This document shows, one piece after another, positions 24,194 through 50,536 of a stretch of DNA of 64,000 nt. The position numbers and the translations under genes were made by a program. Each line of letters begins with the position of its first letter. Position 1 is the first letter of the stretch. Below the pieces are notes generated by a model. That model made no database searches and was not told the DNA's origin. It saw only the letters and a program-made list of their open reading frames with translations. Origin of the DNA: an uncultured Micavibrio sp. (GTDB lineage: Bacteria; Pseudomonadota; Alphaproteobacteria; Micavibrionales; UBA2020); assembly GCA_964575605.1 (NCBI GenBank), contig CAZNRN010000008.1:47918-111917 (forward strand), written 5' to 3'.

Positions 24194-24194
24194 C

Positions 24195-27100: not shown

Positions 27101-27215
27101 ATTCCCGCGCCTCCTTCGCCCATTTGTCGAGGCGACGGTCGGGGATATGCGCTGCGACTTCTACCCTGATTGCTGCTGCGCCCATTTGTCCTTCGCCTTT
27201 TCCTTGCCGAGACAT
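24195..27215 (-). CDS. purL: FGAM synthase subunit PurL with an N-terminal PurS-like extension (PurSL-type fusion)
   Basis: 1006 aa versus about 740 for a stand-alone PurL. The PurL core begins near QTWSEHCKHKIF. The preceding ~200 aa form two short alpha/beta units, which I interpret as fused PurS. No separate purS gene is present. The start is ambiguous (27215 or 27185). Confidence 0.85.
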   Translation of the reverse strand: MSRQGKGEGQMGAAAIRVEVAAHIPDRRLDKWAKEAREYLGVPLAAIEEVKVYKIAPLSAANDAPVKIGRVFADPVLARAQTGAADYSFKDAPAFVAEITYRPGVTDNPARSAEEALSLTGLQAEVASGSLYFLFGGVDAAGAKKVARELLANELIQKIDVWPYAEFVKLKRFDDVKLPKALFTHPPKPEEVSLELDDAGLEKLSKERFLAMTLPELRHIRDYYRKPETQAERKKLGLPQHPTDVEIEVFAQTWSEHCKHKIFAAKIDFTGADGKTSQVDSLYKTYIKRATKEIEAERKLNWLVSVFSDNAGIVRFDDNIDLCIKVETHNSPSALDPYGGALTGILGVNRDILGCGLGARPIANTDVFCFAPPSMPAKGEEQFMPLGPKPPRRILEGVHKGVEDGGNKSGIPTVNGAFFFDRDYAGKPLVFVGTVGVLPPKLPDGRDSSEKKLAAGDRIVMVGGAIGADGIHGATFSSLELDENAPATAVQIGDPLTQKRMADFLLEARDLGLYAAITDNGAGGLSSSVGEMAQMSGGASLDLALCPVKYPGLSPWELMVSESQERMTLAVPPKKLKDFLSLAMKRGVVATDIGAFTDTGKLEVFYKGALTGILDLHFLHNSLPQMQLKAEWTGPKARASWSETTKLSAKRTAAPATRDALLTLLASPNITSKEKWVRAYDHEVQASTHVKPFAGAKADGPSDAGVIWLYPHGGQKENAVAVGCGMAPRISPLDPYRMAQFAVDEAVRNVVTAGGDPDMLCLLDNFCWPDPVTSAKNPDGAYKLGQLVRTCQGLYDICKAYGAPLVSGKDSMKNDFRGKDGRGMDINISCLPTLMVTAMAKVPMGASTGSAFRTAGDLIYVLGTEGTQGLAGSEYAYAFEVADDNGPAIDPAKNLALYRALHSALKQNLVRSAHDVSEGGLLVAVAESMLAGRLGAALEINTDAATLFGEAPGRIVVSVSPAQKAAFEKTVPAATQIGTVAATGKLALKDTEISLDDILTAWKRGF

Positions 27216-27907
27216 ACGATTTTCTTGTCGGTGCCGGGGATTTTCTCGAGCCTCCAGCTGCCCGCAATAAGGTGTTTCAGGAATTCCGCATAAATTTCGT
27301 ATTCCAGCTTCATGCCGCGGTCGCGGAATTTTTCAAAGGGCTCTTCCTCTTCCCGCTCGAACGCGCGCTGCAGGATGATGGGGCCGGTATCGACGCCGTC
27401 ATCGACGAAATGCAGCGTCACGCCGGAAATTTTCACTCCTGCGTTAAAGGCCTGCAAATAGCTGTCGGTGCCCGGGAAGGCGGGCAGCAGCGAGGGATGG
27501 ATATTGACGATACGGTTGATGCCGAGTTCGGCGTCATGGAAGCTTTTGACGAATTCGGGGCTGAGGATGCGCATGTAACCGGCCAGAAAAATCCACTCGA
27601 CGTTGTTTTTCTTCAGCACGTCGATGATGGATTTTTCGTGGTCTTCCTTGCTTACGCCCTGCTTGCGGGGCAGGATTTCGCACTGGGTGCCGAATTTCTT
27701 CGCGCGCTCGATGACGCCGGCGTAGGGCTGGTCGGTCAGCACCAGTATCGCCTCGATGCCGTCAAGTTTCTGGCAGTGCGTCAGGATGTTTTCTGCGTTG
27801 GTGCCGTTGCCGGAGGCGAAAACGGCGGCGCGGATGGGGTTATTTGCCCCAGAACTATTTCCCAATGTCTTTCCTCCAATGTGCGCCGTTAAATTTGATA
27901 TGGCCAA
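27161..27907 (-). CDS. purN: phosphoribosylglycinamide formyltransferase
   Basis: AVFASGNGTNAE, NIHPSLLPAFPG and HFVDDGVDTGPII. The annotated start overlaps purD by 53 nt, so the true start may be an internal non-ATG codon. Confidence 0.88.
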   Translation of the reverse strand: MAISNLTAHIGGKTLGNSSGANNPIRAAVFASGNGTNAENILTHCQKLDGIEAILVLTDQPYAGVIERAKKFGTQCEILPRKQGVSKEDHEKSIIDVLKKNNVEWIFLAGYMRILSPEFVKSFHDAELGINRIVNIHPSLLPAFPGTDSYLQAFNAGVKISGVTLHFVDDGVDTGPIILQRAFEREEEEPFEKFRDRGMKLEYEIYAEFLKHLIAGSWRLEKIPGTDKKIVCLGKEKAKDKWAQQQSG

Positions 27908-29162
27908 TGGCCTCGTAGGCGCGTTTGCGCGCCTCTTCCATCGTGGCGCCCAGCGCGGTGACGCCCAGCACGCGGCCGCCCTCGTTCGTCCAGCCTGCGC
28001 CGCCTTTTTTGGCGCCCGAGACGAAGAGCATTTTATTGTCGTTGGTGCCGCTATCCAGCAGCTTTTCAGGCAGGTCGATTTTCTGTCCTAATGTCATGCC
28101 CGTGCCGAAGGTTTCGGGGTAGCCTTCGGAGGCCATGACCACATGCACCGAAGCGCCTTCGCGCAAGGATACCTTTTCTGATTTTAACTGGCCCGCCGCG
28201 GCCGCCGCAAACAGCGGCACGATATCGTTTTCGATCAGCGGCAGCAAAATCTGCGTTTCAGGGTCGCCGAAGCGGGTGTTGAATTCAATCACCTGCACGT
28301 CGTCGCCCTCGATCATCAGGCCCGCGAAGAGGATGCCGCGGAAGGGCGTGCCGCGCGACTGCATGCCTGCCAATACCTTGCGGAAGATGCCTTCGGCCAC
28401 GAAGTTGCGCGCTTTAGCCGAAGGCCAGCCCTGCGGCGCATAGCCGCCCATGCCGCCGGTATTGGGGCCTTCGTCGTTGTCGCGTACGCGTTTATAATCG
28501 CACGCGAACCCCAGCGAGATAAATGTATCGCCATCGCAGAGCGCAAAGGCCGAGGCCTCGCGTCCGGTGATTTTCTGCTCCAGCAACAACCGGTCGCTTT
28601 TTACCTGGCATGCGGCGTTCAACATGAAATCATCGACGGTTTTTTCGGCTTGGGCGCGGTCATGCGTGACGACGACGCCCTTGCCCGCCGAAAGGCCGTC
28701 GGCCTTCAGCACCACGCCCCTGCCCGCCACATCCCAGCCCGCCAGTGCGGCCAGGGCGTCGGAGGCGGAATCGCAGATTTTATAAGGTGCGGTGGGGATG
28801 CCGAATTCGGTCATGAATTCCTTGGCGAATATCTTCGAGCTTTCCAGCTGCGCCGCCGCCTTGCTGGGGCCCAGCACAAGGAAGCCCGCTTTTTCAAGCG
28901 CATCGACAACGCCCGCGGCCAAGGGCTTTTCAGGCCCCACCATGACAAGGCCGGGTTTCAATTCCTGCGCCTTTGCGACCACAAAGGCCGCATCGGCGGG
29001 ATTGCCGGGAATGCAGGTGACTTTATCCAGCACCGCCATGCCGTCGTTGCCGGGAATGGCGTGGATATGGGTGACGCCGGGCGACTGGGACATTTTCCAG
29101 GCGAGCGCATGTTCGCGCCCGCCACCACCCAGCAGCAATACCGATGTCACCGTCTGCGTCAT
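27855..29162 (-). CDS. purD: phosphoribosylamine--glycine ligase
   Basis: VLLLGGGGREHALAWK plus an ATP-grasp region. ATGA overlap with the purC stop. Confidence 0.92.
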   Translation of the reverse strand: MTQTVTSVLLLGGGGREHALAWKMSQSPGVTHIHAIPGNDGMAVLDKVTCIPGNPADAAFVVAKAQELKPGLVMVGPEKPLAAGVVDALEKAGFLVLGPSKAAAQLESSKIFAKEFMTEFGIPTAPYKICDSASDALAALAGWDVAGRGVVLKADGLSAGKGVVVTHDRAQAEKTVDDFMLNAACQVKSDRLLLEQKITGREASAFALCDGDTFISLGFACDYKRVRDNDEGPNTGGMGGYAPQGWPSAKARNFVAEGIFRKVLAGMQSRGTPFRGILFAGLMIEGDDVQVIEFNTRFGDPETQILLPLIENDIVPLFAAAAAGQLKSEKVSLREGASVHVVMASEGYPETFGTGMTLGQKIDLPEKLLDSGTNDNKMLFVSGAKKGGAGWTNEGGRVLGVTALGATMEEARKRAYEAIGHIKFNGAHWRKDIGK

Positions 29163-30337
29163 GCCACTTTCCCGGGCTTTGCCGCAGGCGTCTTGACCAC
29201 TTCGTCAAGGTCCCAGGCGTCGGCGAAAATCGCCTTGCCGTGGAAGCGGACGGAGAGCGCCTTGGCGATGCCCTTGTAAATCATCTCGACGCGCTGCTTG
29301 ACAGCGGGCGCGAGGAGCGGCGGCGTCACCTGCAGTTCATCCATGCAGATTTTCTTCCAGTCTTTTTCGCCGCGCTGTTTCGCCAGGTCCTTGGCGGTTT
29401 CAAGGCCCTTGAGCCATGCGGTTGGGCGGTAGAAGCTGCGCAGCGCTTCTTTCGACAGGTGATGGCCTTCGCGGATCAGGCGCAGTTCGTCGGGGCCGAT
29501 GGAATCAACCAGCATGTATTCGCGGTTCCCCTGGCGGTTTTTCACGCCGAAGCCGAATTCCAGCTTGCCGTCCCACAGTTCAACGCCGATGGCGGCGAAG
29601 ACGTCTTTCAGGCGGAGCGCCGTCAGGCGCGCCAGCACGCCCAGCGCGCGGAATTCTTCAGCCGACAGCCCGGCGATTTCCTGCGCTTCCGCATAGGGCA
29701 GGTAGCGGTCGGAGGTTTCGAGCTTGGTCGAATATTCGATGACGGGAATGTCGAAAACCTCGCCGGAAACAGGAGGCTTGGAGAGCCCCAGCGCCTTGCA
29801 GTATTCGGCATTGCCCGTGCGCTGCAGAAGCGACGAGCCCTCAGGCACGCCGAAACGGAAGATGACTTCGAGCGGCACCAGCGTGTTTTCGGGCTTCGCG
29901 CGGTAGGGCGTGTAATCCCAGTGCAGCTTGCCGTCGATGACGCTGGAGGTCGGGTCGATGACATCGACCGGCGTGACCGCCAGGCAGCGCGACGGCGAGA
30001 GGAATTCGCGCTGCAGCGGAATTTGCCGCGCGTCATGGTCGACGAGACCCAGCATATGGTGCCTCAACCCCGTTTCGCGCAGGCCGCGCAATACGCTTTC
30101 CTGTTCAAACGCCGCAGGCGCCTGCCAGTTCTGCCAGTTTTCGGGCTTGCCAAGGAAGTCGAAGAAGAACCAGCCCATAAAGGCCAGCGCCGCGCCCTTG
30201 TCGGCCAGCAGGTCGGGCATCTGGCCCCAGTCGAAAATGGAATAACGGTCGGAGAATTCGAAGATGTAGGGCGACTGGCCTTCCTCGCCCCTCACGTTTT
30301 TCACGGAACCTTCGTAAATGATGGCGGGTAAAGTCAT
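29159..30337 (-). CDS. purC: SAICAR synthetase (long form)
   Basis: YEGSVKNV...FEFSDRYSIFDWG. The start was moved to MTLPAI (complement of 30335-30337), where ATGA overlaps the purE-like stop. At 392 aa it is longer than common bacterial PurC. Confidence 0.85.
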   Translation of the reverse strand: MTLPAIIYEGSVKNVRGEEGQSPYIFEFSDRYSIFDWGQMPDLLADKGAALAFMGWFFFDFLGKPENWQNWQAPAAFEQESVLRGLRETGLRHHMLGLVDHDARQIPLQREFLSPSRCLAVTPVDVIDPTSSVIDGKLHWDYTPYRAKPENTLVPLEVIFRFGVPEGSSLLQRTGNAEYCKALGLSKPPVSGEVFDIPVIEYSTKLETSDRYLPYAEAQEIAGLSAEEFRALGVLARLTALRLKDVFAAIGVELWDGKLEFGFGVKNRQGNREYMLVDSIGPDELRLIREGHHLSKEALRSFYRPTAWLKGLETAKDLAKQRGEKDWKKICMDELQVTPPLLAPAVKQRVEMIYKGIAKALSVRFHGKAIFADAWDLDEVVKTPAAKPGKVA

Positions 30338-31092
30338 GCTGCTTTCTCCTTGGAAACTTTTGCGGAAGCGCCGAGGCGCGCGACCGAGGCGACGGCGTTG
30401 CGCGTGTTGTTGCACCCGACCCAGAGGCCGCCCTTGTTCGCCCATTCTACCAGTTGCAGGTAGGATTCAGGTTTCTGCGCGTGCGATTTCGACATCAGCG
30501 GCACGTGCAGGCAAAGCTCACCCGGGTGGATATGGACGCTTTCGGCCACAAGGCGCACGTCAAACGCGCCGTCGGTCGAGGACATGTCCGTCAGCTTGAC
30601 CTCGATGCCTTTTTCTTTCGCCGCCGTGCGCGCCTTTTCAATTTCGGCGATGAGTTCGGCATCGGCCATGTATTCGGGCGAGGGCGCCACGAAATTGATG
30701 CGGGAATAATCGACGCGCGCGGTGCCGTATTGTTTCAGGAAGGCGGGGATTTCGGACGGTTTCTGCGGCCCTGCCGTCATCACCGGCACGCCGGGCGGCA
30801 TTTGCGCGATGGAGGCGAAACTGTCGAGCCCGCCGAATTGCGAGGGCACAGCGACGCCGAAGACGGGGATTTTGACCATGGCGGCAACCACACCGGGCAG
30901 CGCCGCGGCAAGGCCTGCGCCGGCCACAACCGCGTCGCCCTTCCATTCGTGCATTTTGGCGTGGAGTTTATCGAGGTCGCGGTGGGCGGAGATGGCTTCG
31001 TATTCCACTTCCGCGAATTTTTTGAGGCTTTCGACCAGCGGCAGCGCCGTCCCTTCGTCGGATTTGCTGCCGAACACTACGAATATCTTCAT
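30334..31092 (-). CDS. purE: atypical PurE-like protein (AIR carboxylase fold + ~120-aa C-terminal extension)
   Basis: VFGSKSDE, SAHRD, GAGLAAALPGVVAA, PVFGVAVP and QMPPGVPVMT match PurE blocks within the first ~125 aa. The remainder is not recognised. Confidence 0.7.
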   Translation of the reverse strand: MKIFVVFGSKSDEGTALPLVESLKKFAEVEYEAISAHRDLDKLHAKMHEWKGDAVVAGAGLAAALPGVVAAMVKIPVFGVAVPSQFGGLDSFASIAQMPPGVPVMTAGPQKPSEIPAFLKQYGTARVDYSRINFVAPSPEYMADAELIAEIEKARTAAKEKGIEVKLTDMSSTDGAFDVRLVAESVHIHPGELCLHVPLMSKSHAQKPESYLQLVEWANKGGLWVGCNNTRNAVASVARLGASAKVSKEKAA

Positions 31093-31133
31093 TACCGTCC
31101 CCCTCGTTAATTAAGAAAAAACTATGTCTAGGC

Positions 31134-32624
31134 TTACCCTGCCGCGCGCGCCTTTTTGCGTTCCTTTGAAAAATGGTCGCCTTCGGCAATCGCCGTCGGG
31201 TACTTGTTGTTGACGCAGGCCATGCAGAGCTTGCTGACGCCGATGGCCTGGCGCAAATCTTCTTCGTCGAGGTAGATGACCTTTTTGACGCCGATCATTT
31301 CGGCCAGGTCTTCCGCCGTCTTGTCATGCGCCACCAGGTCTTTCGCATCGGGGAAATCGATGCCGTAGAAACAGGGGTGGCGGATGGGCGGGCATGTGAT
31401 GCCGAGCGTCACTTCTTTCGCGCCGTGTTTTTTCAGCAGCGAGACGATGTGTTTCGACGTCGTGCCGCGCACGATGGAATCGTCAATCAGGAAGATATTC
31501 TTGCCAGCGATTTCGCCGGCGACGGGGCTCAGCTTCAGCTCCACCGCGTGCTCGCGCTTGTGCTGGCTGTTCAGGATAAAGCTGCGCGCCACGTAACGGT
31601 TTTTGATAAGCCCTTCGCGGTACGGCAGCTTGAGCGCATCGGCGACAGATATTGCCGAAGGCCGGCTGGTATCCGGCACCGGCATCACGACATCGGGCGA
31701 AATCTCGCCGGATTTGATGGCGGCGGCGGCGCGCTGGCCGAGGCGCTCGCCCAGTTTCAGGCGCACGCCGTAAACGGGGTGATGGTCGATCGAGCTTTCG
31801 GCGCCCGAGAAGTAAACCCATTCGAACATGCAATGGGCTTTTTCTTCCTTGCGCACCACGGCGCTTTGCAGCTGTCCCTTGGTGTCGATAAAGATAACCT
31901 CGCCGGGCTCGACATCGCGCAGGTATTGGTAGCCAAGGTAGGTCATGGCGATGGTTTCGGAGGCGAAGCACCAGGTTTTAACGCCGTTTTCTTCCTTCAC
32001 GCCCAGCGCCATGGGGCGGATGCCCTTGGGGTCGCGGAAGGCGACCATGCCCTGCCCAGCGATCAGGCCCAGCACGGCGTAGCCGCCGATGACGGTATCG
32101 AACATCTTCGACGCCGCCTGTTTTATATTGTCGAAGCTGAATGTTTTAGCCGAGGGCAGCGCCTCGCCGTCCATCAGGAAGTGGCCGAAGTAGTGGATCA
32201 GCGCTTCCAGGTCGTTTGCGGTCAGCAGCTGGTGGTGGAAACGCTCGGACAATTCCTGCTTGAGGCTGTAATAGTTGAGCGCATTGCCGTTATGCACCAT
32301 GCCTAGGCCGAAGGGGATGCCCTCCACCATCGGCTGGATGTCGCGGGTGCCGTCGCCGCCGGCCGTGGCATAGCGCGTATGCCCTATCGCCATGTAACCG
32401 CCCAGCTTTTCGACTTTTTCGCGGGTGAAGACATTGGCGACGAGGCCGAGGTCTTTTTCCATAGCGAACATGCGCGTGACGTTGTCATATGTCAGGATAC
32501 CCGCAGCGTCCTGCCCGCGGTGCTGAAGCGCCAGCAGGCCGCGGAACGCCTCGTAGGCGGCGGAATAGGACACTCCTCGACTCCCGTTTTCTTCAGGGCC
32601 GATAATGCCAATAATTCCGCACAT
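31134..32624 (-). CDS. purF: amidophosphoribosyltransferase
   Basis: N-terminal MCGIIGI (Ntn Cys), LQHRGQDAAG and PRTase loop LIDDSIVRGTT. Confidence 0.93.
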   Translation of the reverse strand: MCGIIGIIGPEENGSRGVSYSAAYEAFRGLLALQHRGQDAAGILTYDNVTRMFAMEKDLGLVANVFTREKVEKLGGYMAIGHTRYATAGGDGTRDIQPMVEGIPFGLGMVHNGNALNYYSLKQELSERFHHQLLTANDLEALIHYFGHFLMDGEALPSAKTFSFDNIKQAASKMFDTVIGGYAVLGLIAGQGMVAFRDPKGIRPMALGVKEENGVKTWCFASETIAMTYLGYQYLRDVEPGEVIFIDTKGQLQSAVVRKEEKAHCMFEWVYFSGAESSIDHHPVYGVRLKLGERLGQRAAAAIKSGEISPDVVMPVPDTSRPSAISVADALKLPYREGLIKNRYVARSFILNSQHKREHAVELKLSPVAGEIAGKNIFLIDDSIVRGTTSKHIVSLLKKHGAKEVTLGITCPPIRHPCFYGIDFPDAKDLVAHDKTAEDLAEMIGVKKVIYLDEEDLRQAIGVSKLCMACVNNKYPTAIAEGDHFSKERKKARAAG

Positions 32625-33411: not shown

Positions 33412-36400
33412 TCAGCGCGCGACTGACGGCTTTTTCTGCGCATTGAGGTTCGCGGCCTTGCGGCGGTATTCCGCCGCGGTGTCGAATATCTCCGACATTT
33501 TCGTGGGCTTGGCGAAGACGGCGAAGCCGTTCTGCTTGATATAGTTATACAGCGTGCCCACCTTCATCTTGCGGCCGTCGGTCGCCTTGGGCGTCCACAT
33601 CTGGTAGCCCAGCGCCTGCGCGAATTCCTCGTCGATGAGGGCGCGCGACATCAAGGACTGCGCCGTGTGTCCGCCGGTCAGCTTTTCGAATGACGTGCCG
33701 TCGCGTTTTGCCATCTGGTCGAGGCAGTAAACCGCCAGCTGCGCCAGTTCCGGCTTATGGAAGGCGCCGATATTGGGCGTGCGCAAGCTTGATTGGTGGT
33801 CGATGTTCTTGCCATAGGTCGCGCAGACCGGGCTGCCGTGCACCTTGAACTGGGCATGCGACCATTTTTCGTACGAGAGGCGCACACGGTCGTGCAGCGT
33901 TTCGATATCGTCGCTGGCGAAGTTCTTGTCCGCGCCGCATTTCTGGAAGACCTCGATCGGGTTGTTCTTGCGGTCGTCCTGCGCCGAGGGGCGGTCGTAA
34001 AGCATGAAGTGCGAGATGATATCCATCTGGCGGAAGGTGCGGCCCAGCTGGTCTTCGTCGAACTGCGTGACCTTGCCGTCGGCACTCTTCGGCTGCAATT
34101 CGGCGGAGGGGCGGTTTTTCAGCACCCAGAAGAAAGGCTGCACCGGGGCGACGCCGCCCTCGAGGCCGTACTGGAACAGCATCTGCATGTGGTCGAGCTC
34201 GCGCTGTTTATCCTTGTGCGCGTTGCCGGCGATCATGCCGCCGTGCAGGTCGCCGCCCCAGGTGGCGTAACTGTTGCGCCCTTCGTCGAGGTTGGGGTTC
34301 GAAATGGCGATTTTGTTCTCGACGTTCGAGAACAGCATGATCAGCACCTGGCGCAGGCGCGCCTGGATGTTTTCATAGGCAATCGAATGCTCGTCCTTCG
34401 CGGTCGACAGCACGTCGCCCGCGACTTCTTCAAACGTCGATTTCAACACGTGGATGCGGCGGTCGAGTTCTTCGGGCGTCGTGTCGTCCTTGCGCGTGCG
34501 CAGGATGCCCGCGATTTCCTTGCGGATTTCCGCGTCGCGTTCGTCCGAAATCTGCCCCGGGTTCACGCCCGAGAAAATTTCGGCATAGACTTCGACAAGG
34601 CGCTGCACGTTGCGGTATTCGAAGACGCCGCCGATGCCTTTATAAGCCTTGCCATCCGGCGTCACGCCGCCTTCGATAAGGGTTTTAGCGGCGCGGAGTG
34701 TATCATCGGACGAGTTATCGGTGCCCATGTAGACGCAGGTCAGCATCTTGTCCATACAGGCGTCAATCGCAGCCTCTTTCCCGCCGCTCGCATTCGCGGC
34801 GAGGATGTCCTTTTTGTATTTCAGATGACCCATCGCCTCGACGAAGCCCTCGACGCCCAGTTCGTTCATGCCGAGTTCGACCATGAAGCGCACCTTGGCG
34901 GCGTTATAGGCGGAGTCAGCGCCCCCTGATAGCGCCTGCGTCACGCCCTGTATCTTGTTCTTGCGCATATAGTCGAAGAGCCAGAGCGTTTCGTTGCGCA
35001 TCTCCTCTTCCATCTCGCGGCGGGGGCCGTGTTCCCAGGGGGCGGGGCCGTCCTGCACGGGGGCGGTATGTTTATCGGCGAAGCTATGCTCGATGGTCAC
35101 ATGCGGCGCATGGCCCTTGTCGACCGGAGGTGTCACGGTCACGGTCTGGCTGGTATAGGCCATATCCTTAAAGCTCGCGCGCACGCCTTCGGAAATGATT
35201 TTCCCGTCCTGCGCCATCAGGCGGGAGCCGAATTGCGCGAACGTCGAACCACTGCTGCCCAGGCCGTCGGTATGCACGATAACGTCACAATGGCGCGTCG
35301 CCAGTTCGCACAGCTCATAGTGCTTGTCGATTTTATTGGCCGCGGGCGGGCTGGCGTTGGGGTTGATCATGACGGTGATGTCGAAATTCTTTGCCTTTTG
35401 CGCCAGCGGGTTGTCGCGGTCGTAGTTGCTGTTGTCGGGTGCGCCGTCATAGTGCGAGCCGATCCAGTACATTTCGCAAATAATTTGGACAATGTTCGCC
35501 ACACGGCCGTTTTTTCCGCGCAATTGCGTCACGGGGGAGCCGAAGGGGATGGTTTTGGCGGGCACGGTGGTGCCGTCGTCATACGACATGCCCGGCAGTT
35601 CGATCATGATAGTGCCGTCGCGGCCCTTGCCGAACTTGTTCTCGTATTCGTTGGCTTCCTTGTCGTTCCATTCCTCGAAATGGCGTTTTTCGTAGCCCCT
35701 TTCGTAGTTGAACAGGTAGCTTTTGCACGACATCGAAACGACGTCGCCGCCCGAGAGCAGCGTCTGCACGTTGAACTGGTTATTGGTGCGGTTGAAAATA
35801 GCGTTCTTGCGGCGGTCCAGCTGGTCGGGCAGGTCTTTATCCGCGAAATACCACGGGTGGCCGACAGAAATGACGAGGTTCGGGTCTTTGGACGCCGCGT
35901 AATCCGCGATGATCTGCAGCATCTGGCGCGTCTTGGCGTTGTCGGAATAATAGAATTCGTCGCCGCGTTCATAGGCCGACAGTCCCAGTTCCTCGAGGCA
36001 CAGCAGGTCCGCGCCGTCTTCCACGGCTTTATCAATCGCCTTGCAGATATTGGCAAGGTTGCGGGGCCAGTCGCCGCCGGTCTGGTTGCAGCTAGCCGAG
36101 GCGATTTTCATTTCGAATGGAGTGGACATAGCCTGTTCCTTCTTTGTGTAATTCTCTTTCACCAGCGCGGCCGCAGCCTCGCCCAGCTTTTTGATGTCGT
36201 TAGAGCCCGCCGCCGCCAGCACATCGGCCGTCGAAATGCCGGCCTCAAGGCGCAGGCGGTCGAGGCTGAGGTCGAAAACGGTCAGGGGGATGTTGTTTTT
36301 TTCCAGCAGCGCCTTGTCGGGGTTCGCATCGCGCGCGGCTTTCGCCAATTCGACAATATAATCCGGCGCGGCCATCAGCGATTTTTGCGTATCGGTGAGT

Positions 36401-36948
36401 TTCGCAAGATCGAAGCCGCGGATTTGCGTCGCGTTCACCTCGTCATCGGCCGGGTTCTGGTTGCGGGATTCCCATGCGCCGATGCCGCGGGCGGTGAAGC
36501 CGTCGGCATACTGGCTGAGCGGGCGTATCGCGCCGCCTGCGTCTTTGGCATCCGCCGCCTTGATGCGGTAATGCACGGCGGCTTTGCCCGCAAAGGGGGT
36601 TTTTTGCAGCTGGTTGTAAAAACCGTTCAGCCAGCGCTGCTGGTTGCCGACATCGGGCAGCGTCATGACCAGCGCGTCGTCATACAGTTCCGGCACCGCG
36701 CGCTTCAGCTGTTCTTTTTGCTGTTCCAGCGTCAGCGGGTTTTTGACGGGGTCGAAGAACGCGCTGTCGGAGCCGTTGGTCGAGCCGATGAAGAAGACAG
36801 GCTTCAGGCCTGTCGCCGCAATCTCGCGCAGGCAGTCGGCATGGACACGGTGCATGGGCGCGCGGCGGCCGATGGAAATCGCGTATTCGACGCCGCCGGC
36901 TTTCAAAGCCGTCTTTACCTCGTCGCCATGTCCGCGATATATGCTCAT
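33412..36948 (-). CDS. nadE: triple fusion: NMNAT-like nucleotidyltransferase + CN-hydrolase glutaminase + NAD synthetase (NadE)
   Basis: 1178 aa. Residues ~22-110 read ISIGRRAPMHRVHADCL...FFIGSTNGSDSAFFDPVKNPLTLEQQ, which is like the NadM/cytidylyltransferase pattern IGRFQPxHxGH...IGS...NPFT. A canonical NadE would start at M274 (MSTPFEMKIASASCNQTGGDW). The PP-loop is ALSGGADS. Confidence 0.8.
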   Translation of the reverse strand: MSIYRGHGDEVKTALKAGGVEYAISIGRRAPMHRVHADCLREIAATGLKPVFFIGSTNGSDSAFFDPVKNPLTLEQQKEQLKRAVPELYDDALVMTLPDVGNQQRWLNGFYNQLQKTPFAGKAAVHYRIKAADAKDAGGAIRPLSQYADGFTARGIGAWESRNQNPADDEVNATQIRGFDLAKLTDTQKSLMAAPDYIVELAKAARDANPDKALLEKNNIPLTVFDLSLDRLRLEAGISTADVLAAAGSNDIKKLGEAAAALVKENYTKKEQAMSTPFEMKIASASCNQTGGDWPRNLANICKAIDKAVEDGADLLCLEELGLSAYERGDEFYYSDNAKTRQMLQIIADYAASKDPNLVISVGHPWYFADKDLPDQLDRRKNAIFNRTNNQFNVQTLLSGGDVVSMSCKSYLFNYERGYEKRHFEEWNDKEANEYENKFGKGRDGTIMIELPGMSYDDGTTVPAKTIPFGSPVTQLRGKNGRVANIVQIICEMYWIGSHYDGAPDNSNYDRDNPLAQKAKNFDITVMINPNASPPAANKIDKHYELCELATRHCDVIVHTDGLGSSGSTFAQFGSRLMAQDGKIISEGVRASFKDMAYTSQTVTVTPPVDKGHAPHVTIEHSFADKHTAPVQDGPAPWEHGPRREMEEEMRNETLWLFDYMRKNKIQGVTQALSGGADSAYNAAKVRFMVELGMNELGVEGFVEAMGHLKYKKDILAANASGGKEAAIDACMDKMLTCVYMGTDNSSDDTLRAAKTLIEGGVTPDGKAYKGIGGVFEYRNVQRLVEVYAEIFSGVNPGQISDERDAEIRKEIAGILRTRKDDTTPEELDRRIHVLKSTFEEVAGDVLSTAKDEHSIAYENIQARLRQVLIMLFSNVENKIAISNPNLDEGRNSYATWGGDLHGGMIAGNAHKDKQRELDHMQMLFQYGLEGGVAPVQPFFWVLKNRPSAELQPKSADGKVTQFDEDQLGRTFRQMDIISHFMLYDRPSAQDDRKNNPIEVFQKCGADKNFASDDIETLHDRVRLSYEKWSHAQFKVHGSPVCATYGKNIDHQSSLRTPNIGAFHKPELAQLAVYCLDQMAKRDGTSFEKLTGGHTAQSLMSRALIDEEFAQALGYQMWTPKATDGRKMKVGTLYNYIKQNGFAVFAKPTKMSEIFDTAAEYRRKAANLNAQKKPSVAR

Positions 36949-36956
36949 GCAGCCTT

Positions 36957-38141
36957 TTAAGGATTGAATTTACGCGTGATTGAAGATTGCGGCTTTCCCG
37001 CGTCGGCGGTAATCGCCAGTATCCCTTCGACCGTGGCCGTACCGACGTGGCGCGATTTTGCAAGGCGCTCGGGCGTGCCGTCGAGGCTGAAAGGGGTTTC
37101 CGCGCCGCCCGGGATGGGGATGCCGCGGCAGATTTCGGGGACGAGGTTGGTTTCAACCTCCATCCCGCGCATCTTGAAGTGGCCTGCCAGAAAATCGACC
37201 ACGTTGTTGGCCGAGAATTCTACGCAGAAGTTGGTGGCGAGGCCGCCGATGTTGATCTGGACATTCTCGCAGCCCTGTTTTTTCAGCGCGCGGGCGATCT
37301 GCTTGAACACGTCCCAGGCCGCCGTCATGCTGTCACCGTCGTTTTCGACGCCGATGCCGTAGCTGTCAACTTCGGAATCCGCGCCTTTGCGGATGACGTA
37401 GTATTCATTGCCGGTCGCTTCGTCCTTGTGATAGACGGTCGGGCTCATCAGGTCGTCGTTGAGCTTCGATTGCAGCCCCTGCGGCAGTTTCATGTCGGCG
37501 GGATAGAGCGCACTGTCGGTGCCCTGAACGCAATGTTTCGTCCAGAGCGTCTGGGTCGACAGCTCCGCGCCGTTCGCGCGCATGTCGTCGAAGGTTTCGG
37601 GCAGGTATTCGTCCAGCACCTTTTTGACGCGGTAGGAATTTTTCGACGACGACTGGAACGTCGCCTCGCTCGACAGCTCGACCTTGCGGATCCGGCCGTC
37701 TTCTTCCTTCACGCCGATGATCTTGCGGTCTTCGTCCAGCACAATCTCTTCAAAAGGAAACGCCGCGGGCGGGTTTTCCATGCCATTGAAGAAATGCACG
37801 GGCTGCTGCGCGCGCTGTTTCAATTCTTCGCCGTCCACGTCCGGCTGGCCGTTGGCGGCCAGGAACTTGCGGAATTTTTCCATGCGGTATTCCATCACGC
37901 CCGGATGGTTGACCATGAAGCTGATGTGGTTGGCGGGGTGGTAATCCTGCCCGAGGATGAAAACCGTGTTGCGGCCCTTCTCGATCATTTTGCCCATGAT
38001 AGGCGTTACCTGTTCGCCGCCGGGGACATACAAAACGCCGCCCTGCGCTTCGGTCAGCGTGAAGTCGAGGAAGCCGCGTTCGGGGTCGATGAAGATATTG
38101 ATGACGGCGGTTTTCTTGCCGTTTAACTGATGCAGCGCCAT
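36957..38141 (-). CDS. pncA: nicotinamidase (isochorismatase family) with a large insertion
   Basis: IFIDPERGF, QDYHPANH, LWTKHCVQGTDSA, RKGADSEVDSYG and GLATNFCV match PncA catalytic and metal motifs. The start was moved to MALHQL (complement of 38139-38141), preceded by GGGAGG and lying 1 nt after the pncB stop. Confidence 0.8.
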   Translation of the reverse strand: MALHQLNGKKTAVINIFIDPERGFLDFTLTEAQGGVLYVPGGEQVTPIMGKMIEKGRNTVFILGQDYHPANHISFMVNHPGVMEYRMEKFRKFLAANGQPDVDGEELKQRAQQPVHFFNGMENPPAAFPFEEIVLDEDRKIIGVKEEDGRIRKVELSSEATFQSSSKNSYRVKKVLDEYLPETFDDMRANGAELSTQTLWTKHCVQGTDSALYPADMKLPQGLQSKLNDDLMSPTVYHKDEATGNEYYVIRKGADSEVDSYGIGVENDGDSMTAAWDVFKQIARALKKQGCENVQINIGGLATNFCVEFSANNVVDFLAGHFKMRGMEVETNLVPEICRGIPIPGGAETPFSLDGTPERLAKSRHVGTATVEGILAITADAGKPQSSITRKFNP

Positions 38142-38142
38142 G

Positions 38143-40071
38143 TTACATGCCTCCCGCTTTGGGCAGCTGGGTATTGCCGCCCTCGAAGCGTTCTTTGTAG
38201 GATTCAACCCCCTGCCCGCCCGTGGCGTGACCGAGGTGTTTTTGTTCGCAGGCCGCGCGCTGGTCGAAGAGCTTGCGGTCGAGGTAGACGGGGATGTGCG
38301 CCTGCTCGGGCGGCAGCGACGCGTTCATCGCGGCGATATCGATATTGAGGTTTTTATCGCCCGATTTAAATGCGGCGTTAAAGGCCGCGACCAGTTTTTC
38401 CTTGAGCACTTCAGCGCGCGGGCGGCGCACCCTGCGCACGTTTTCGGGCAGGGTGTTCAGGCCGTCCTTGATACGTTTTTCCAGCACGGAAAGGTCGGTC
38501 GTGAATTTGCCGCTGCCGGGATGTGTTTCTTTCTGCGGCAGGTCGGACATCACATATTTGCCGTCTTCGTCGAAGACGGGAATCAGGCTGTCTTTTGCAA
38601 CCAGTTTACCGTCGTTCGTTTTAACGTCCTTGAAGTTGCGCAGGTTGACCATCTCGCCTTTCGGGTCGAGGCCGAGGGTTTCGTCGTAAATCACGACATG
38701 CGAGAGTTTACCGTCTTCGGTGTAGAAGCGGCGCGAGTTGATCACGCCGGGGTTCGACGATTTCACGGGCGCGTTCGACGCGACCTTCATCACCGGCGTC
38801 ATGTTGTCCTGCTTCGGTTCTTCGCCCTGCTCCAGCACATCCATATAAACGTTGGATGCCTTGTAGACGAGGCCGAGAGGCGCCACGTGGGAGCCCGCGG
38901 TGCCGATCCCCCAGCTGCGGAAGAAGGCGCCTTTCGCGCGCATTTCCTGCGCCGTGTGTTCGTCGATGCCGTCGGCGGCCGAGCAGAAGACGGTGCATTT
39001 ATCGGAGACTTTCAGCAGCTCCGCGTCGCTCATCCTATCGGCCTGCTCGCGCGTAACGCCGGGGATAAAGCCTTCCTCGGCAAAGCGTCGCAGCGCTATT
39101 TTCGAATATTCGACGATATCGCCGCTGTCGAAACGTACGCCGTAACCCGCGCCCAGCCCCAGCGCGCGAAGTTCCTTGATGACCGTGATTGCGTTTTCAA
39201 GGCCTTTCATGGGGTCGTAGGTATCGACCAGCAAAATGCCGCTTTCGGGGTGCGCGAAGGCGAAGCTGCGGAAGGCGTCTTCCTTCAGCGCCCAGCGCAA
39301 TTCGCGGATCTTGCCTTCGTCGTTCATCTTGAACATTTCGGCCAGCGTCACACCCGCGATTTCATGCCCGTGCGTCATCACCCAGGCATGGTCCATCGTG
39401 CCGGCAAAGGGCTGCGCGAAGTTTTTCGCGGCCGTGCCGGTCGAGCTTGATTTATAACCGCCGGCGCCAAGAGAGCGCGACGATTCAAGCATCGCGCCCA
39501 GGCCCGGGCCGCGGCGCATGCCCTGCGCGCTGGCGGCGCCCGTGGGGGAGCCGTTGTCGAGTTCTTCCTCGACCGCGTCGCACTGACGCGCGCCCTGCGT
39601 CATGTAGCCGCTGTGGCCGTTCATCAGGCCGAGCGCCACGGATTCCAGCATCTTCACCTGCGCGATCGGGCCCGACACGCGCAGCACGGGTTCCTGCGGG
39701 AAGAAGACGCCGCCCTCGGGCTGCGCCTCGATCTTCAGCTTGAATTCCATTTCGGAAAGGTACTGGATAAACGCCTCGGCAAAGACCGGCTTGCCGGAGG
39801 GGCGTTTTTGCGAACGCAGGAAGTTCAGGTCGTCTTCGGTAAAGCCGTGTTCCTGCCAGCGCTTGACGATATCGATGAGGCCTTCGAGGCCGCCCGCGAT
39901 GCTGTAGCCGCCGCCTAAAGCTTCCTTGCGGCCGAACATATAAAAGGTGGCGGGGTTGTCGGCGCGGCCTTCGAGCCAGTAGCCGTAGGCCGTCGTGAAA
40001 TGGTATTTGTCCGTCAAAAGCGGGGTCGTCTGATCGACATCATATGTATCAGCTATAAAACCCATCTGCAC
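38143..40071 (-). CDS. pncB: nicotinate phosphoribosyltransferase (long form)
   Basis: PLLTDKYHFTTAYGYW...ATFYMFGRK...AGGLEGLIDIV...FTEDDLNFL and GTMDHAWVM match NAPRT-type motifs. At 642 aa it is clearly longer than the ~400-490 aa typical of PncB. Confidence 0.8.
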   Translation of the reverse strand: MQMGFIADTYDVDQTTPLLTDKYHFTTAYGYWLEGRADNPATFYMFGRKEALGGGYSIAGGLEGLIDIVKRWQEHGFTEDDLNFLRSQKRPSGKPVFAEAFIQYLSEMEFKLKIEAQPEGGVFFPQEPVLRVSGPIAQVKMLESVALGLMNGHSGYMTQGARQCDAVEEELDNGSPTGAASAQGMRRGPGLGAMLESSRSLGAGGYKSSSTGTAAKNFAQPFAGTMDHAWVMTHGHEIAGVTLAEMFKMNDEGKIRELRWALKEDAFRSFAFAHPESGILLVDTYDPMKGLENAITVIKELRALGLGAGYGVRFDSGDIVEYSKIALRRFAEEGFIPGVTREQADRMSDAELLKVSDKCTVFCSAADGIDEHTAQEMRAKGAFFRSWGIGTAGSHVAPLGLVYKASNVYMDVLEQGEEPKQDNMTPVMKVASNAPVKSSNPGVINSRRFYTEDGKLSHVVIYDETLGLDPKGEMVNLRNFKDVKTNDGKLVAKDSLIPVFDEDGKYVMSDLPQKETHPGSGKFTTDLSVLEKRIKDGLNTLPENVRRVRRPRAEVLKEKLVAAFNAAFKSGDKNLNIDIAAMNASLPPEQAHIPVYLDRKLFDQRAACEQKHLGHATGGQGVESYKERFEGGNTQLPKAGGM

Positions 40072-40206
40072 ACCACTCTTTTTTAATTAAATCAGGTAGT
40101 TACTTCTTTTTCGGTGACTCTATATGATTTTCATAACCAAGTCAATCTGATTATGGTATATTGCCAGCCGAGAGTGATTCACCCCGCTATATAATAGGCT
40201 TACATA

Positions 40207-41319
40207 ATGAACAAAGCGCTAAAGCCCCTGCTCCTCGTCGGCAACAACACGGCGCCGGAAACGCGCAAGGCGCTCGAGGAAAGTGGCCAGTTCGAGGTCA
40301 TCACCGCCAGCATCGGCAAATTTGTCAGCGGCGAGCCCTTTGCCGAGCTGCACAAGGGCGAGGAAAAAGTTTACGCCGACAACCTCGCGCGCCTGAAGGG
40401 CGCGAAGGTCTATGTGCTGCAATCGACGTCGGAGCCCGTGGCCGACAGCTTCCAGCACATGCTGCTCATGGCGCATACGCTGAAATATTTCGGCGCGGGC
40501 GACGTGACCGCCATCTGCCCCTTCGCGGCGGGCTTGAGGCAGGACCGCGCGTTCAAGGACCGCTTCACATCGGTCGCGGCCGTGCTGTTCGCGCAGCAGA
40601 TGAAGGCGTCGGGTATCGACGGGGTCATCACCATGACGCCCCATTCCAAGGGCGCGATTGCGGAATACACCAAGGTTTTCGGCGACCGCTTTATTCCGCT
40701 CGCCACCACCAAGATGTTCGCGGATGACATCAAAGCGCGCTTCGGTTGCGACCCGGACCAGCTCTGCATCGGCGCGCCCGACGGCGCGGACAAGGCGACT
40801 GACGAAGGGCAGACACGCGCCCGCGAGCTTGCCAGGGCCATCTTCGGCCGCGCGGACGACGACTGCATGTTCCGCATCTCGAAAACGCATACCGGCGTGA
40901 ACAATACAAAAATCACCGCCTTCGACGGCGATGTGGCGGGCAAGGATTGCGTAATCATCGACGACATGATCGACGGCGGTTCCACCATGAACAACGCTGC
41001 CGCCATGCTAAAGGCGCAGGGTGCCCGTTCCGTCACCTGCTACGCCACGCATGGCATCCTCACGAACAACGCGCTTGAAAAACTGCTGGAGGCCAAATAC
41101 GACGGCATGCACAATGCCATCGATAAAATCGTCATCACCGACAGTATCCCCGGCGCCGCCGAGAAACTGGCCGCACTGCTGGCGCAGCAGCCCAAGCTGG
41201 CCGGCCGCGTGGAAATTTTGTCGGTCGGCGATATGGCCGTGAAACAGGTGAAGAAAGACATGGCGCCCACCGCCGTCCGTCCCGCCGCACAGGGCCCGAA
41301 GGCCGCTTTCGGCCGTTAA
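40207..41319 (+). CDS. ribose-phosphate pyrophosphokinase-like protein (divergent Prs)
   Basis: PRPP-binding loop VIIDDMIDGGSTM and a two-domain PRTase layout. 370 aa. Divergently transcribed from pncB. Confidence 0.6.
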   Translation: MNKALKPLLLVGNNTAPETRKALEESGQFEVITASIGKFVSGEPFAELHKGEEKVYADNLARLKGAKVYVLQSTSEPVADSFQHMLLMAHTLKYFGAGDVTAICPFAAGLRQDRAFKDRFTSVAAVLFAQQMKASGIDGVITMTPHSKGAIAEYTKVFGDRFIPLATTKMFADDIKARFGCDPDQLCIGAPDGADKATDEGQTRARELARAIFGRADDDCMFRISKTHTGVNNTKITAFDGDVAGKDCVIIDDMIDGGSTMNNAAAMLKAQGARSVTCYATHGILTNNALEKLLEAKYDGMHNAIDKIVITDSIPGAAEKLAALLAQQPKLAGRVEILSVGDMAVKQVKKDMAPTAVRPAAQGPKAAFGR

Positions 41320-46915: not shown

Positions 46916-47836
46916 ATGCGCGCCATCGTCAAAAACAAAAATTCATTGGGTGTACAAAACATCCCCGCCCCGCTACTCACCGCTGACACCGACGTGATTA
47001 TCGAGGTGAAACTGGCGGGGCTTTGCCGCACCGACGTCTTCGTGGCGGAGGGGCGCATCCCCTGCAAGGAAACCCTTGTCCTCGGCCACGAATTTTCGGG
47101 CGTCGTGGTGCAGGCAGGCAGCGATGCCGATTTTTCCCAAGGCGACCGCGTGACGGCCATGCCCGTGCTGCCCTGTTTCGCCTGCGAGCGCTGCGACGCG
47201 GGCCGCGCCGACCAGTGCCAGAGAACCACCATGCTGGGCATCGACGTTGACGGCGCCTTTGCCGAGCGCGTGGCCGTGCCCGCGACCGCCGTCTACAAAA
47301 TTCCCGATACCATGTCCTACCGCCTTGCCGCCTATGCCGAGCCTGTGGCGGCCGCGCTGTCGGTGATGAAATCGGGCATCGAAAAATCGCAGCGCGGCGT
47401 GATTTACGGCAACAACCGCTTCAGCCACCTGATATTGCGCATCATGCGCGCCTATGATTTCAAAAACGTCACCATTCACGACCCGAAAACGGCGGTGCTG
47501 CAGGAATCGCGCTATGATTTTGCCGTTGAAACGCTGGCCGCCAATCAAACCATGAGCGAATTGATGACCGCCGTGAAACCCGGCGGCCGCATCGTGCTGA
47601 AAAGCCGCAAGCATGAACCCGTTGGAATTTGTTTTGCCGAGGCGGTGCGCAAGGAAATCACCTTCACCGCCGTCAACTATGGCGAATTCGGCGAGGCGAT
47701 CCGCTTGATGGCCGAGGGGTTGATTGCAGTGGATGATTTATTGGGCGAGGAATACGGCCTTGGCGATTACGCCACAGTGTTCGAGCGTTCAAAAACGCTG
47801 GAAACCCGCAAGGTTTTCTTCAACCCGGAGAAATAA
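46916..47836 (+). CDS. zinc-dependent MDR alcohol dehydrogenase-like protein
   Basis: GLCRTDVFV, GHEFSGVV and the Cys cluster CFACERCDAGRADQC (structural Zn). Confidence 0.8.
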   Translation: MRAIVKNKNSLGVQNIPAPLLTADTDVIIEVKLAGLCRTDVFVAEGRIPCKETLVLGHEFSGVVVQAGSDADFSQGDRVTAMPVLPCFACERCDAGRADQCQRTTMLGIDVDGAFAERVAVPATAVYKIPDTMSYRLAAYAEPVAAALSVMKSGIEKSQRGVIYGNNRFSHLILRIMRAYDFKNVTIHDPKTAVLQESRYDFAVETLAANQTMSELMTAVKPGGRIVLKSRKHEPVGICFAEAVRKEITFTAVNYGEFGEAIRLMAEGLIAVDDLLGEEYGLGDYATVFERSKTLETRKVFFNPEK

Positions 47837-47837
47837 C

Positions 47838-49751: not shown

Positions 49752-50536
49752 CCCCCGACGCACAGGAAAGAACCAAAGCCAGCTGGTGCGAAGATTTCTT
49801 CGACGACCTTTTCGCCGAACACTGCCTTGCAACCCGCACGCCAGACGAGCTGCAGGCCATCACCACCTTCCTGCAGCGTGAGCTGAAACTTGGAACCGGC
49901 GACGCCGTTTTCGACCAGTGCTGCGGCATTGGCACGCTCAGCCTTGCGCTGGCGAAGCGGGGGTTGCGCACCTTTGGCGTCGACCTTATCCCTTCCTACA
50001 TCGACACGGCAAAAAACGCGGCGGTAAAGATGCAGGCCGCCTGCACTTTCGCTGCGGCCGACGCGGCTTTCTATTGCCCACCCGTGCCCTGCGACGCCGC
50101 TATCAACTGGTGGACCAGTTTCGGTTATTTCGAGGACGACGCCGAAAACCTGAAAATGCTGAAAGCCGCGCGCCGCAGCCTGAAGCCCGGCGCGTCCTTT
50201 GCGCTTGATTACATGAACACGCCCGAACGCCTTGCGCTGATGGGCGGCAGGCCCGTGACGTCATGGCGCGCGGAAAAACCCGGCTGCGTCGTCTCCTGCG
50301 ACACCCGCATCGACGGCCGCATGCTGGTCAAGGACTGGAAATACGAAGGCGCGGATAGCAGGAAGGTTGAAAAACGCGGCGGCGGCGTCAAGCTGTACAC
50401 GCAGCAGGAACTCGAAAGCCTGCTGGAGCAGGCCGGTTTCACCGCCGTCCGCTTCTATGGCAGTGTCAAGGGCGAGGCACTGGCCGTCAACAGCCCGCGC
50501 TGCATCGCCATCGCGCAAAACGGCAGTGCGCCATGA
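49748..50536 (+). CDS. class I SAM-dependent methyltransferase
   Basis: Motif I VFDQCCGIGTLSLALA, followed by GVDL and LKPGASF. ATGA overlap on both sides. Confidence 0.8.
   Translation: MTPDAQERTKASWCEDFFDDLFAEHCLATRTPDELQAITTFLQRELKLGTGDAVFDQCCGIGTLSLALAKRGLRTFGVDLIPSYIDTAKNAAVKMQAACTFAAADAAFYCPPVPCDAAINWWTSFGYFEDDAENLKMLKAARRSLKPGASFALDYMNTPERLALMGGRPVTSWRAEKPGCVVSCDTRIDGRMLVKDWKYEGADSRKVEKRGGGVKLYTQQELESLLEQAGFTAVRFYGSVKGEALAVNSPRCIAIAQNGSAP

Follow-up and report, generated by a model that had tools for sequence, protein, structure and literature searches.

A probable Preiss-Handler-type NAD salvage module with a linked PRPP synthase-like gene in a Micavibrio-like alphaproteobacterium

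The Preiss-Handler route to nicotinamide adenine dinucleotide (NAD) belongs to the textbook pathways. Its genes are organized in pncA-pncB-nadE operons in, e.g., Pseudomonas, and in pncA-pncB-nadD-nadE operons in Clostridium, as described in a study of the NrtR regulon (PMC2330246). The same study reports prs-nadV operons, in which a second prs paralogue is committed to pyridine salvage, in Shewanella, Acinetobacter, Chromobacterium, and Cytophaga; the reason for a separate synthase of phosphoribosyl pyrophosphate (PRPP) in this context was left open in 2008 (PMC2330246). A Prs homologue of different chemistry is encoded by phages: Adps pyrophosphorylates ADP-ribose, and its gene nearly always lies beside a transferase resembling nicotinamide phosphoribosyltransferase (NAMPT) (10.1101/2024.02.11.579819). 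The signature of Adps is a remodelled PP loop (DDICD) and the loss of the C-terminal α11-α12 module (PMC13586617). Here, we describe a locus of four divergent genes, pncB-like, pncA-like, a nadE fusion and prs-like, in 64,000 nucleotides of DNA from an uncultured Micavibrio sp. (assembly GCA_964575605.1, contig CAZNRN010000008.1, positions 47,918 to 111,917; “the window” in the following refers to this whole stretch). With good confidence, the sequence of this locus can be read as that of a Preiss-Handler-type module for NAD salvage or recycling with a committed PRPP supply, in a Micavibrio-like alphaproteobacterium.

In the proposed pathway, the PncA-like protein would deamidate nicotinamide to nicotinate, while the Prs-like protein would form PRPP from ribose 5-phosphate and ATP. 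The PncB-like protein would then combine nicotinate and PRPP to nicotinate mononucleotide (NaMN), which a NadM-type adenylyltransferase domain, here called X, would convert to nicotinate adenine dinucleotide (NaAD). The glutaminase and NAD synthetase domains fused to X would finally amidate NaAD to NAD. It is further proposed that pncB, pncA and X-nadE are transcribed together from a conserved σ70-like promoter in the intergenic spacer, and that prs is read in the opposite direction. We infer all of these enzyme activities, the order of substrates and the regulation from sequence. A route from nicotinamide to NAD with PRPP supply in one locus had been proposed in the initial annotation, and family profiles, catalytic motifs and matches in the PDB support it.

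The encoded proteins

Equivalog and Pfam scores were compared with the curated cut-offs of the families, and most of them fall below the equivalog cut-offs, which marks the proteins as divergent members of their families. The PncB-like protein matches PF17767 (NAPRTase_N) with 80.7 bits (Pfam cut-off 32.6) and TIGR01513 over residues 17-551 (E 5e-70). Its closest relatives in the PDB are the nicotinate phosphoribosyltransferases (NAPRTases) of E. faecalis and human, and the His in GTMDHAW (222) aligns with GTHAHS of the E. faecalis enzyme 2f7f, i.e., the active-site (phospho-)histidine of the GT-x-AH motif is kept. Proteins of this clade comprise 600-680 amino acids (aa), and some PncB-like proteins exceed 1000 aa. 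The PncA-like protein aligns with the A. baumannii nicotinamidase 2wt9 in three collinear pieces (E 8e-15), its fold being split by at least two insertions, the largest of about 95 aa. Alignment of the motifs IDPERGF (18), QDYHPANHISF (65), WTKHCVQ (200), IRKG (250) and ATNFCV (302) with 2wt9 and 1ilw indicates that the Asp-Lys-Cys triad and the Asp/His/His metal site are retained; the roles of these residues are presumably those established for PncA. In three related loci (L009, L010, L013), the place of this gene in the operon is taken by short PncA orthologues (223-249 aa), which are recognized by Pfam Isochorismatase, and the long form is also found in the distant locus L011. Both assignments in the initial annotation were upheld, that of the PncB-like protein by its profile matches and that of the PncA-like protein by the nicotinamidase match and a complete set of catalytic and metal-binding motifs, and the profile searches reassign neither the transferase nor the hydrolase to a family outside NAD metabolism.

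The 1178-aa protein consists of three domains. Its glutaminase domain matches PF00795 (27.8 bits, cut-off 23.2) and can be aligned with the G-domain of 3ilv and 4f4h; the Glu-Lys-Cys triad is presumed to reside in LEELGL (318), CKSYLF (408) and ICEMYW (490). The NAD synthetase domain matches PF02540 (47.3 bits, cut-off 21), contains an SGGADS P-loop at residues 674-679, and finds its best PDB match in the glutamine-dependent NAD synthetase of C. hutchinsonii (3ilv, E 2e-29). With both Pfam models above their cut-offs, the assignment to NadE stands. Among related proteins, P0077 (1932 aa) and P0083 (1736 aa) appear, on reading the sequences by eye, to carry a tandem duplication of the glutaminase and NAD synthetase unit in one polypeptide, and the first copy in P0083 looks degenerate.

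Domain X was characterized by its predicted structure, its motifs and a profile. A PDB sequence search returned no match for the N-terminus of the 1178-aa protein, and in PHROG the domain weakly matches a cytidyltransferase family (phrog_395, E 1e-4). The AlphaFold2 model of the domain has a mean predicted local distance difference test score (pLDDT) of 92.8, and its top Foldseek matches in the PDB are the NadM proteins of Francisella and Synechocystis (E 1.4e-5, template modelling score (TM) 0.51), followed by other HxGH nucleotidyltransferases. The motifs GRRAPMHRVH (27-36; GRRQPMHQGH in distant members) and NATQIR (172-177; ISASAIR in relatives) are taken here to be the two signature motifs, (H/T)xGH and ISxTxxR, of nicotinamide mononucleotide adenylyltransferases (NMNATs). 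An alignment (A1) of 23 homologous domains was made, and a profile of the domain was searched against 1.84 billion representative proteins; it retrieves 51 full-length relatives at E<1e-30 and also reaches proteins of 170-190 aa at about E 1e-16, which match the core of the profile only. All three of these short proteins that were scanned carry Pfam CTP_transf_like (PF01467), and one of them is fused to NAD kinase. Since fold, signature motifs and the profile link to PF01467 proteins agree, X is most likely a divergent NadM-like adenylyltransferase domain with a Rossmann-like fold, as predicted from model and sequence. The description of the protein as an “NMNAT-like/NadE fusion” is thus also borne out for its N-terminal part.

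NadM tends toward fusion with another enzyme of the NAD cycle, and so does domain X. Elsewhere, X occurs as a standalone protein, C-terminal to a domain of the inositol monophosphatase (IMPase) family, or N-terminal to domains resembling S-adenosylmethionine (SAM) methyltransferases. Examples of the latter two kinds of fusion are L014 (11360-13051), P0231, P0232, P0235, P0261 and P0266, of which L014, P0231 and P0232 have the IMPase-family domain. The IMPase-family partner could be an NADP or nucleotide phosphatase.

The Prs-like protein scores 150 bits against TIGR01251 (cut-off 113) and exceeds the cut-offs of three Pfam Prs domains, which supports its assignment. It is about 30% identical to the Prs structures of E. 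coli and Burkholderia, and at most 33% to canonical Prs. The motifs RQDR (111), TPHS (144) with its His, SKTH (225) with the Lys of the catalytic loop, and DDMIDGGST (252), the ribose-phosphate loop, are kept. Its relatives (360-400 aa) are 35-92% identical, and bit scores fall sharply from at least 170 within this group to at most 116 for canonical Prs; by these scores, the protein belongs to a distinct clade. All four members of the locus are atypically long compared with typical members of their families, as had been pointed out, and the excess is due to fusion, insertions and C-terminal tails. The coordinates of all features are collected in Table 1.

Table 1. Features of the locus and of its surroundings, with positions in the window.
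Feature	Position	Strand	Remarks
X-NadE fused protein, 1178 aa	33412-36948	-	ORF map
Domain X, probable NadM-like N(a)MN adenylyltransferase domain	36118-36948	-	residues 1-277
Glutaminase (carbon-nitrogen hydrolase) domain	35149-36114	-	about residues 279-600
NAD synthetase (ATP pyrophosphatase) domain	33412-35031	-	about residues 640-1178
PncA-like nicotinamidase, 394 aa	36957-38141	-	isochorismatase fold with large insertions
pncA-like ORF at full extent, 416 aa	36957-38207	-	from TTG
PncB-like nicotinate phosphoribosyltransferase, 640 aa	38143-40065	-	642 aa if GTG at 40071 is used
AT-rich divergent control region	40066-40206		promoter-like element for the pncB operon
σ70-like match TTGACT-17-TAGAGT	40145-40117	-	
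Imperfect inverted repeat ATAACCA-N8-TGATTAT	40133-40154		one mismatch
Short palindrome GTGATTCAC	40174-40182	+	next to a TATAAT-like box; the start codon of prs follows after about 25 nt
Prs-like ribose-phosphate diphosphokinase, 370 aa	40207-41319	+	diverges from the pncB-like gene
ORF of 1337 aa	9376-13389	+	
ORF antisense to the 1337-aa ORF	10795-13302		
Two ORFs (205 and 223 aa) between guaA and guaB	16814-18099	+	no Pfam or NCBIfam match
Purine cluster	14915-32624		purF, purE-like (252 aa, long), purC-like, purD, purL, purQ, purH, purM (-); guaA, guaB (+)
Manganese (yybP-ykoY) riboswitch	20023-20121	+	53 bits, gathering score 45
ORF downstream of the riboswitch	20065-20913		no family match
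Set of six genes	46916-55716	+	mostly overlapping stop and start codons
NadR-like bifunctional NMN adenylyltransferase/ribosylnicotinamide kinase	54610-55716	+	TIGR01526 211 bits; AAA_28 at residues 173-341; FGKFMPPTNGH

Gene layout, control region and related loci

The four open reading frames (ORFs) lie where the initial annotation had placed them, according to the ORF map, and the gaps of 1 nt and 8 nt were confirmed in the raw sequence. The 394-aa PncA-like protein starts from ATG at 38141, 1 nt after the stop codon TAA of pncB, and a GGGAGG Shine-Dalgarno sequence is found just upstream of this ATG. The second gap, AAGGCTGC, separates the pncA-like from the 1178-aa gene, and sequences resembling a Shine-Dalgarno site are present at both. 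Because the gaps are so short, the pncB-like, pncA-like and X-nadE genes most likely form a tight operon on the minus strand, with prs transcribed the opposite way. For the pncB-like gene, a length of 642 aa had been given. The corresponding ORF (38143-40071) exists; however, in L001, a 90% identical locus, the codons matching the GTG-CAG start of the window read GTG-TAA. This stop codon makes ATG 40065 the probable start (640 aa) and extends the spacer to 141 bp. The control region described as a shared, AT-rich stretch of 135 bp (40072-40206) is accordingly AT-rich as claimed, but longer.

The cluster has a GC content of 0.59-0.61, equal to that of the window (60%), and thus shows no sign of recent horizontal transfer; horizontal acquisition was rejected on this ground, and the window is ordinary chromosome. 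The metagenome-assembled genomes that contain the nearest loci bear the labels Alphaproteobacteria, “Bdellovibrionales” or Micavibrio sp., Micavibrio being placed in Bdellovibrionales by NCBI.

The spacer differs from its surroundings by a GC content of 34.8%, as compared to 60% for the window, and its mean column identity across the window, L001 and L003 is 86%, the proteins of these loci being 64-90% identical. The element TTGACT-17-TAGAGT is invariant in all three and is the sole σ70-like match on the minus strand. An inverted repeat in this region had been suggested as an operator. The repeat is present with the one mismatch reported, but the proposed role is not supported, and the repeat was rejected as a conserved palindrome. 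Using arms of 7 nt, at most one mismatch and a spacing of 0-20 as the criterion, the 135-bp spacer contains three such repeats, compared to 4.7 ± 3.3 in 2000 shuffled versions, and at least one occurs in 95% of the shuffles; DNA as AT-rich as this can be expected to hold equally good repeats by chance. Moreover, the arms have two mismatches in L001 and three in L003 with no compensating changes, and the bases that stay invariant are the downstream TAGAGT and, at the centre, the -35-like box GATTGACTT, which the repeat overlaps. A repeat search with seed 6 returned no inverted repeat in the spacer. A riboswitch or leader RNA was likewise rejected, given no Rfam match at E≤1 and a folding z-score of -0.94. 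No Nudix or regulator domain occurs in the scanned ORFs of the window, which comprise most of those with 200 aa or more. The palindrome GTGATTCAC is part of a block, GGGGTGAATCAC when read on the opposite strand, whose sequence does not vary between the window, L001 and L003. As an operator candidate, it is preferable to the inverted repeat, yet it is too short to judge.

Whether the NAD genes might be unlinked in related genomes was examined as well: pncB, pncA and nadE stay linked in every relative with a pncB-like gene, and at identities as low as 40%, prs is still found beside pncB in the majority of contexts. The order pncB-pncA-(X-)nadE is found in L001, L004-L006, L009-L011, L013 and L015, while in L002 and L003 the sequence breaks off in pncA or after it. 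The prs-like gene adjoins a pncB-like gene in L001, L003, L009-L011 and L013-L015, at 40-90% identity and in three gene orders. It is divergent, as in the window, in L001, L003 and L015; divergent with a short PncA and a NadE without X in L009 and L010; and divergent with a Nudix domain fused to Prs in L011. In L013, of marine origin, prs-pncB-pncA-nadE are co-directional, and in L014 the order is pncA-prs-pncB, followed by an X-carrying IMPase-family protein of the same type as P0231 and P0232. In addition, a manual comparison of tables yielded about 17 NadE/Prs-like and about 15 PncB-like/Prs-like pairs on contigs of identical size, some of only 4-8 kb. In L006, the flanks of the unlinked pncB operon contain no NAD-related genes.

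Fusions provide a further link between these genes. In P0098-P0103 and others, X is fused to the Prs-like protein (about 620-670 aa) and the NadE protein comprises about 890 aa, while in P0164 a Nudix domain, its REAMEE motif intact in an alignment read by eye, is fused to Prs-like. In L007 and L008, the flanks are those of the window site: GlgX and a major facilitator superfamily (MFS) gene lie to one side, and Yip1, purF, purE and purC to the other. They enclose a NAMPT-like gene together with X-Prs and NadE; pncA and pncB are absent there. Judged from these gene contents, one site is occupied in this lineage by either of two nicotinamide salvage cassettes, deamidating or non-deamidating, each time in the company of Prs-like and X, and the X domain of L007 and L008 must, on the same grounds, serve a PRPP-dependent mononucleotide route. 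The varied fusions of X, Prs-like and NadE are strong sequence-level evidence that the three act in one pathway with PRPP-derived mononucleotide intermediates.

Alternative readings

Several observations weigh against a canonical Preiss-Handler module. At the level of family models, the PncB-like protein scores 236.7 bits with TIGR01513, under the equivalog cut-off of 297.4, the NadE part reaches 117 bits with equivalog models (cut-off 479), and the PncA-like protein has 55.5 bits with NCBIfam PRK11609 (cut-off 174) and no Pfam Isochorismatase match at E≤0.01, its shortfall from the family cut-off being explained by the insertions that split the fold. Domain X matches no Pfam family, including PF01467 (CTP_transf_like), even at E≤10, where only noise appears. 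In the Prs-like protein, His replaces the second residue of the catalytic loop (Arg199 in B. subtilis; SKTH), and the phosphate loop reads DGGST instead of DT[GA]GT, both throughout the clade. With regard to gene content, the sister group L002, L004-L006 has no Prs in the examined flanks of pncB (10 kb upstream, at most about 5 kb downstream). Clusters without X exist (L009, L013), which makes X a non-obligatory part of the module, and the NadR-like NMNAT of the window could also supply the adenylyltransferase step.

It is conceivable that the Prs-like protein is not part of an NAD module at all, but the only, housekeeping PRPP synthase of the organism, its position reflecting the adjacent purine supercluster. 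The genes purF, purE, purC, purD, purL, purQ, purH and purM follow immediately downstream, PurF is another user of PRPP, and Prs-like clusters are about as numerous as NadE clusters. However, prs remains next to pncB where purine genes are missing, as in L009 (with trp genes instead), L013 and L014, and the fusions to X and Nudix connect Prs-like to NAD metabolism. We consider this explanation unlikely, and it would in any case be compatible with a supply of PRPP to PncB. A different order of the last two steps was also considered, in which the NadE part would amidate NaMN to nicotinamide mononucleotide (NMN), thus acting as NMN synthetase, and X would then adenylylate NMN to NAD. In F. tularensis, NadM works in this way together with NMN synthetase, an adapted NadE homologue (PMC3376133). 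The closest structural match of X is indeed the F. tularensis NadM, and an X domain of 50% identity is found beside the NAMPT-like gene in L007 and L008, where it presumably accepts NMN. By contrast, the NadE part is of the two-domain glutamine type, has the C. hutchinsonii NAD synthetase 3ilv as its best match, and displays no sequence feature that would indicate specificity for NaMN; moreover, in Acinetobacter the partner of a bifunctional NadM is a two-domain NAD synthetase of the conventional kind (PMC3376133). The Francisella order is therefore regarded as distinctly unlikely.

The most far-reaching alternative is a deamidated analogue of the phage NARP1 system: the Prs-like protein would form ADP-ribose pyrophosphate (ADPR-PP) from ADP-ribose, the PncB-like protein would join it with nicotinate directly to NaAD, and NadE would complete the synthesis. 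With PncA included, the module would then regenerate NAD from nicotinamide and ADP-ribose, the two products of its cleavage, with no mononucleotide intermediate. In nearly all contexts examined, Prs-like occurs beside a phosphoribosyltransferase of type II; this near-obligatory pairing would be consistent with such a system, resembles NARP1 and speaks against a fully canonical function. Indeed, a Prs-like gene next to such a transferase is the signature of Adps-Namat and rare for ordinary bacterial prs (10.1101/2024.02.11.579819). Prs-like and PncB-like are both divergent and longer than the canonical enzymes, the four-gene clusters without X (L009, L013) would suffice on their own, and an alignment of the Prs-like protein of the window with a Felixounavirus Adps reveals that the short motifs SGE, PHS and DGGxT are common to both, which also weighs against a fully canonical reading. 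However, the similarity to this Adps amounts to 65 bits, compared to 119-136 bits for canonical Prs. The loop reads DDMIDGGST where Adps has DDICD, and the segment aligned to the C-terminus of canonical Prs, which is lost in Adps (PMC13586617), is present and extended. Identity as an Adps was rejected on these three grounds. Furthermore, an NMNAT-like domain X, fused to Prs-like or NadE, requires a mononucleotide substrate, and a Nudix-Prs fusion would destroy ADP-ribose yet supply ribose 5-phosphate; both the Nudix-Prs and the NMNAT-like-Prs fusions thus argue for ribose 5-phosphate as the substrate. Overall, a direct route from ADP-ribose appears highly improbable. In a milder version, the chemistry may be canonical and the locus may nevertheless serve predatory Micavibrio-like bacteria as a dedicated system for NAD reconstitution, in which Nudix and Prs recycle ADP-ribose into PRPP and which may have its own, so far unnamed NMNAT domain family.

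Surroundings and comparison with known systems

The purine cluster lies directly beside the NAD locus, so that several PRPP-consuming pathways sit with the Prs-like gene. The riboswitch in this region is located upstream of an ORF and overlaps its listed start. The interval between guaA and guaB has a GC content of about 0.50 over 2 kb, with local values of 31-33%, and may be an inserted element. In the 1337-aa ORF, the first ~470 residues match CitMHS/ArsB-type transporters and the other ~870 match nothing; with an antisense ORF overlapping it, the gene model is uncertain. On the other side, about 13 kb from the cluster, the NadR-like gene is a candidate, by its sequence, for a second NMNAT and for a route of nicotinamide riboside salvage. 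Its product aligns with E. coli-type NadR from model position 66 and is without the N-terminal part of the model. It belongs to a set of six genes that look like one operon and encode proteins resembling alcohol dehydrogenase (ADH) and asparagine synthase, a methyltransferase, a PhyH-like dioxygenase, a 1088-aa protein, and the NadR-like protein. The 1088-aa protein combines adenylation, carrier and thioester-reductase parts with a C-terminal AAA_28 domain resembling the NadR kinase. Some members of the set recur beside the NAD locus in L008 and L011, and the set may represent a pathway for a modified pyridine nucleoside.

Since the pathway itself is well established, the main gain from this locus lies in annotation and in evolutionary insight. 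Where the sources give names, several family members are called “hypothetical protein” or are named partially, e.g., “nitrilase-related carbon-nitrogen hydrolase”, so that metabolic reconstructions of Micavibrio-like predators could overlook NAD salvage. Domain X would define an NMNAT-like family that is undetected by Pfam, and its shifting fusion partners (NadE, Prs, IMPase-like, methyltransferase) make it a useful marker for genes of the NAD cycle. A protein with three activities, i.e., adenylyltransferase, glutaminase and NAD synthetase, could process NaMN to NAD on a single polypeptide chain. With the Prs-like clade, there is an extension to the puzzle of the committed prs, which has become weightier since phage Adps revealed a different substrate for transferase-adjacent Prs-like proteins. 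That one chromosomal site carries the amidated cassette (NAMPT) in some cases and the deamidated one (PncA/PncB) in others amounts to a clean natural experiment in pathway replacement. In the open-access literature, no description was found of the three-domain X-NadE protein, the X family, the pncB-tied Prs-like clade or the cassette swap, and open-access work on Micavibrio NAD metabolism and on NadM-NadE fusions does not describe this fusion and clade; this is not proof of novelty.

Compared with the described Preiss-Handler operons (PMC2330246), the locus clusters the same families and the same chemistry, namely nicotinamidase, NAPRTase, NaMN adenylyltransferase and glutamine-dependent NAD synthetase. 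It differs in that a NadM-like domain, fused to NadE, takes the place of a separate NadD as adenylyltransferase, in that its members are highly divergent and longer, and in that a Prs-like gene is included; moreover, no NrtR, NiaR or NadR regulator was seen nearby among the scanned ORFs. With NadM, the archaeal-type NMN/NaMN adenylyltransferase, including the bifunctional NadM-Nudix proteins (adenylyltransferase and ADP-ribose pyrophosphatase) of Francisella and Synechocystis (PDB 2r5w, 2qjo), domain X has the fold and the HxGH-type and ISxTxxR-type motifs in common. However, identity is only 16-20%, PF01467 misses X, and X possesses an additional helical C-terminal part of about 80 residues. 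Whereas the bifunctional NadM proteins are fused to Nudix, the partners of X are NadE, Prs-like, an IMPase-family domain or a methyltransferase.

The prs-nadV operons resemble the locus in having a PRPP-synthase-family gene beside a pyridine phosphoribosyltransferase, and the variant in L007 and L008 is directly comparable. In the window, however, the partner is of the NAPRTase family, not NadV, and the Prs-like protein of about 370 aa can be fused to an NMNAT-like or Nudix domain. The phage NARP1 system likewise pairs a Prs-family protein with a protein of the type II phosphoribosyltransferase family (10.1101/2024.02.11.579819, PMC13586617, PMC12774641). Its transferase belongs to the NAMPT family, while that of the window is of the NAPRTase family, and a NAMPT-like neighbour occurs only in the variant of L007 and L008. 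Unlike NARP1, the module of the window adds a nicotinamidase, an NMNAT-like domain and NAD synthetase, and it resides on a bacterial chromosome with native GC content.

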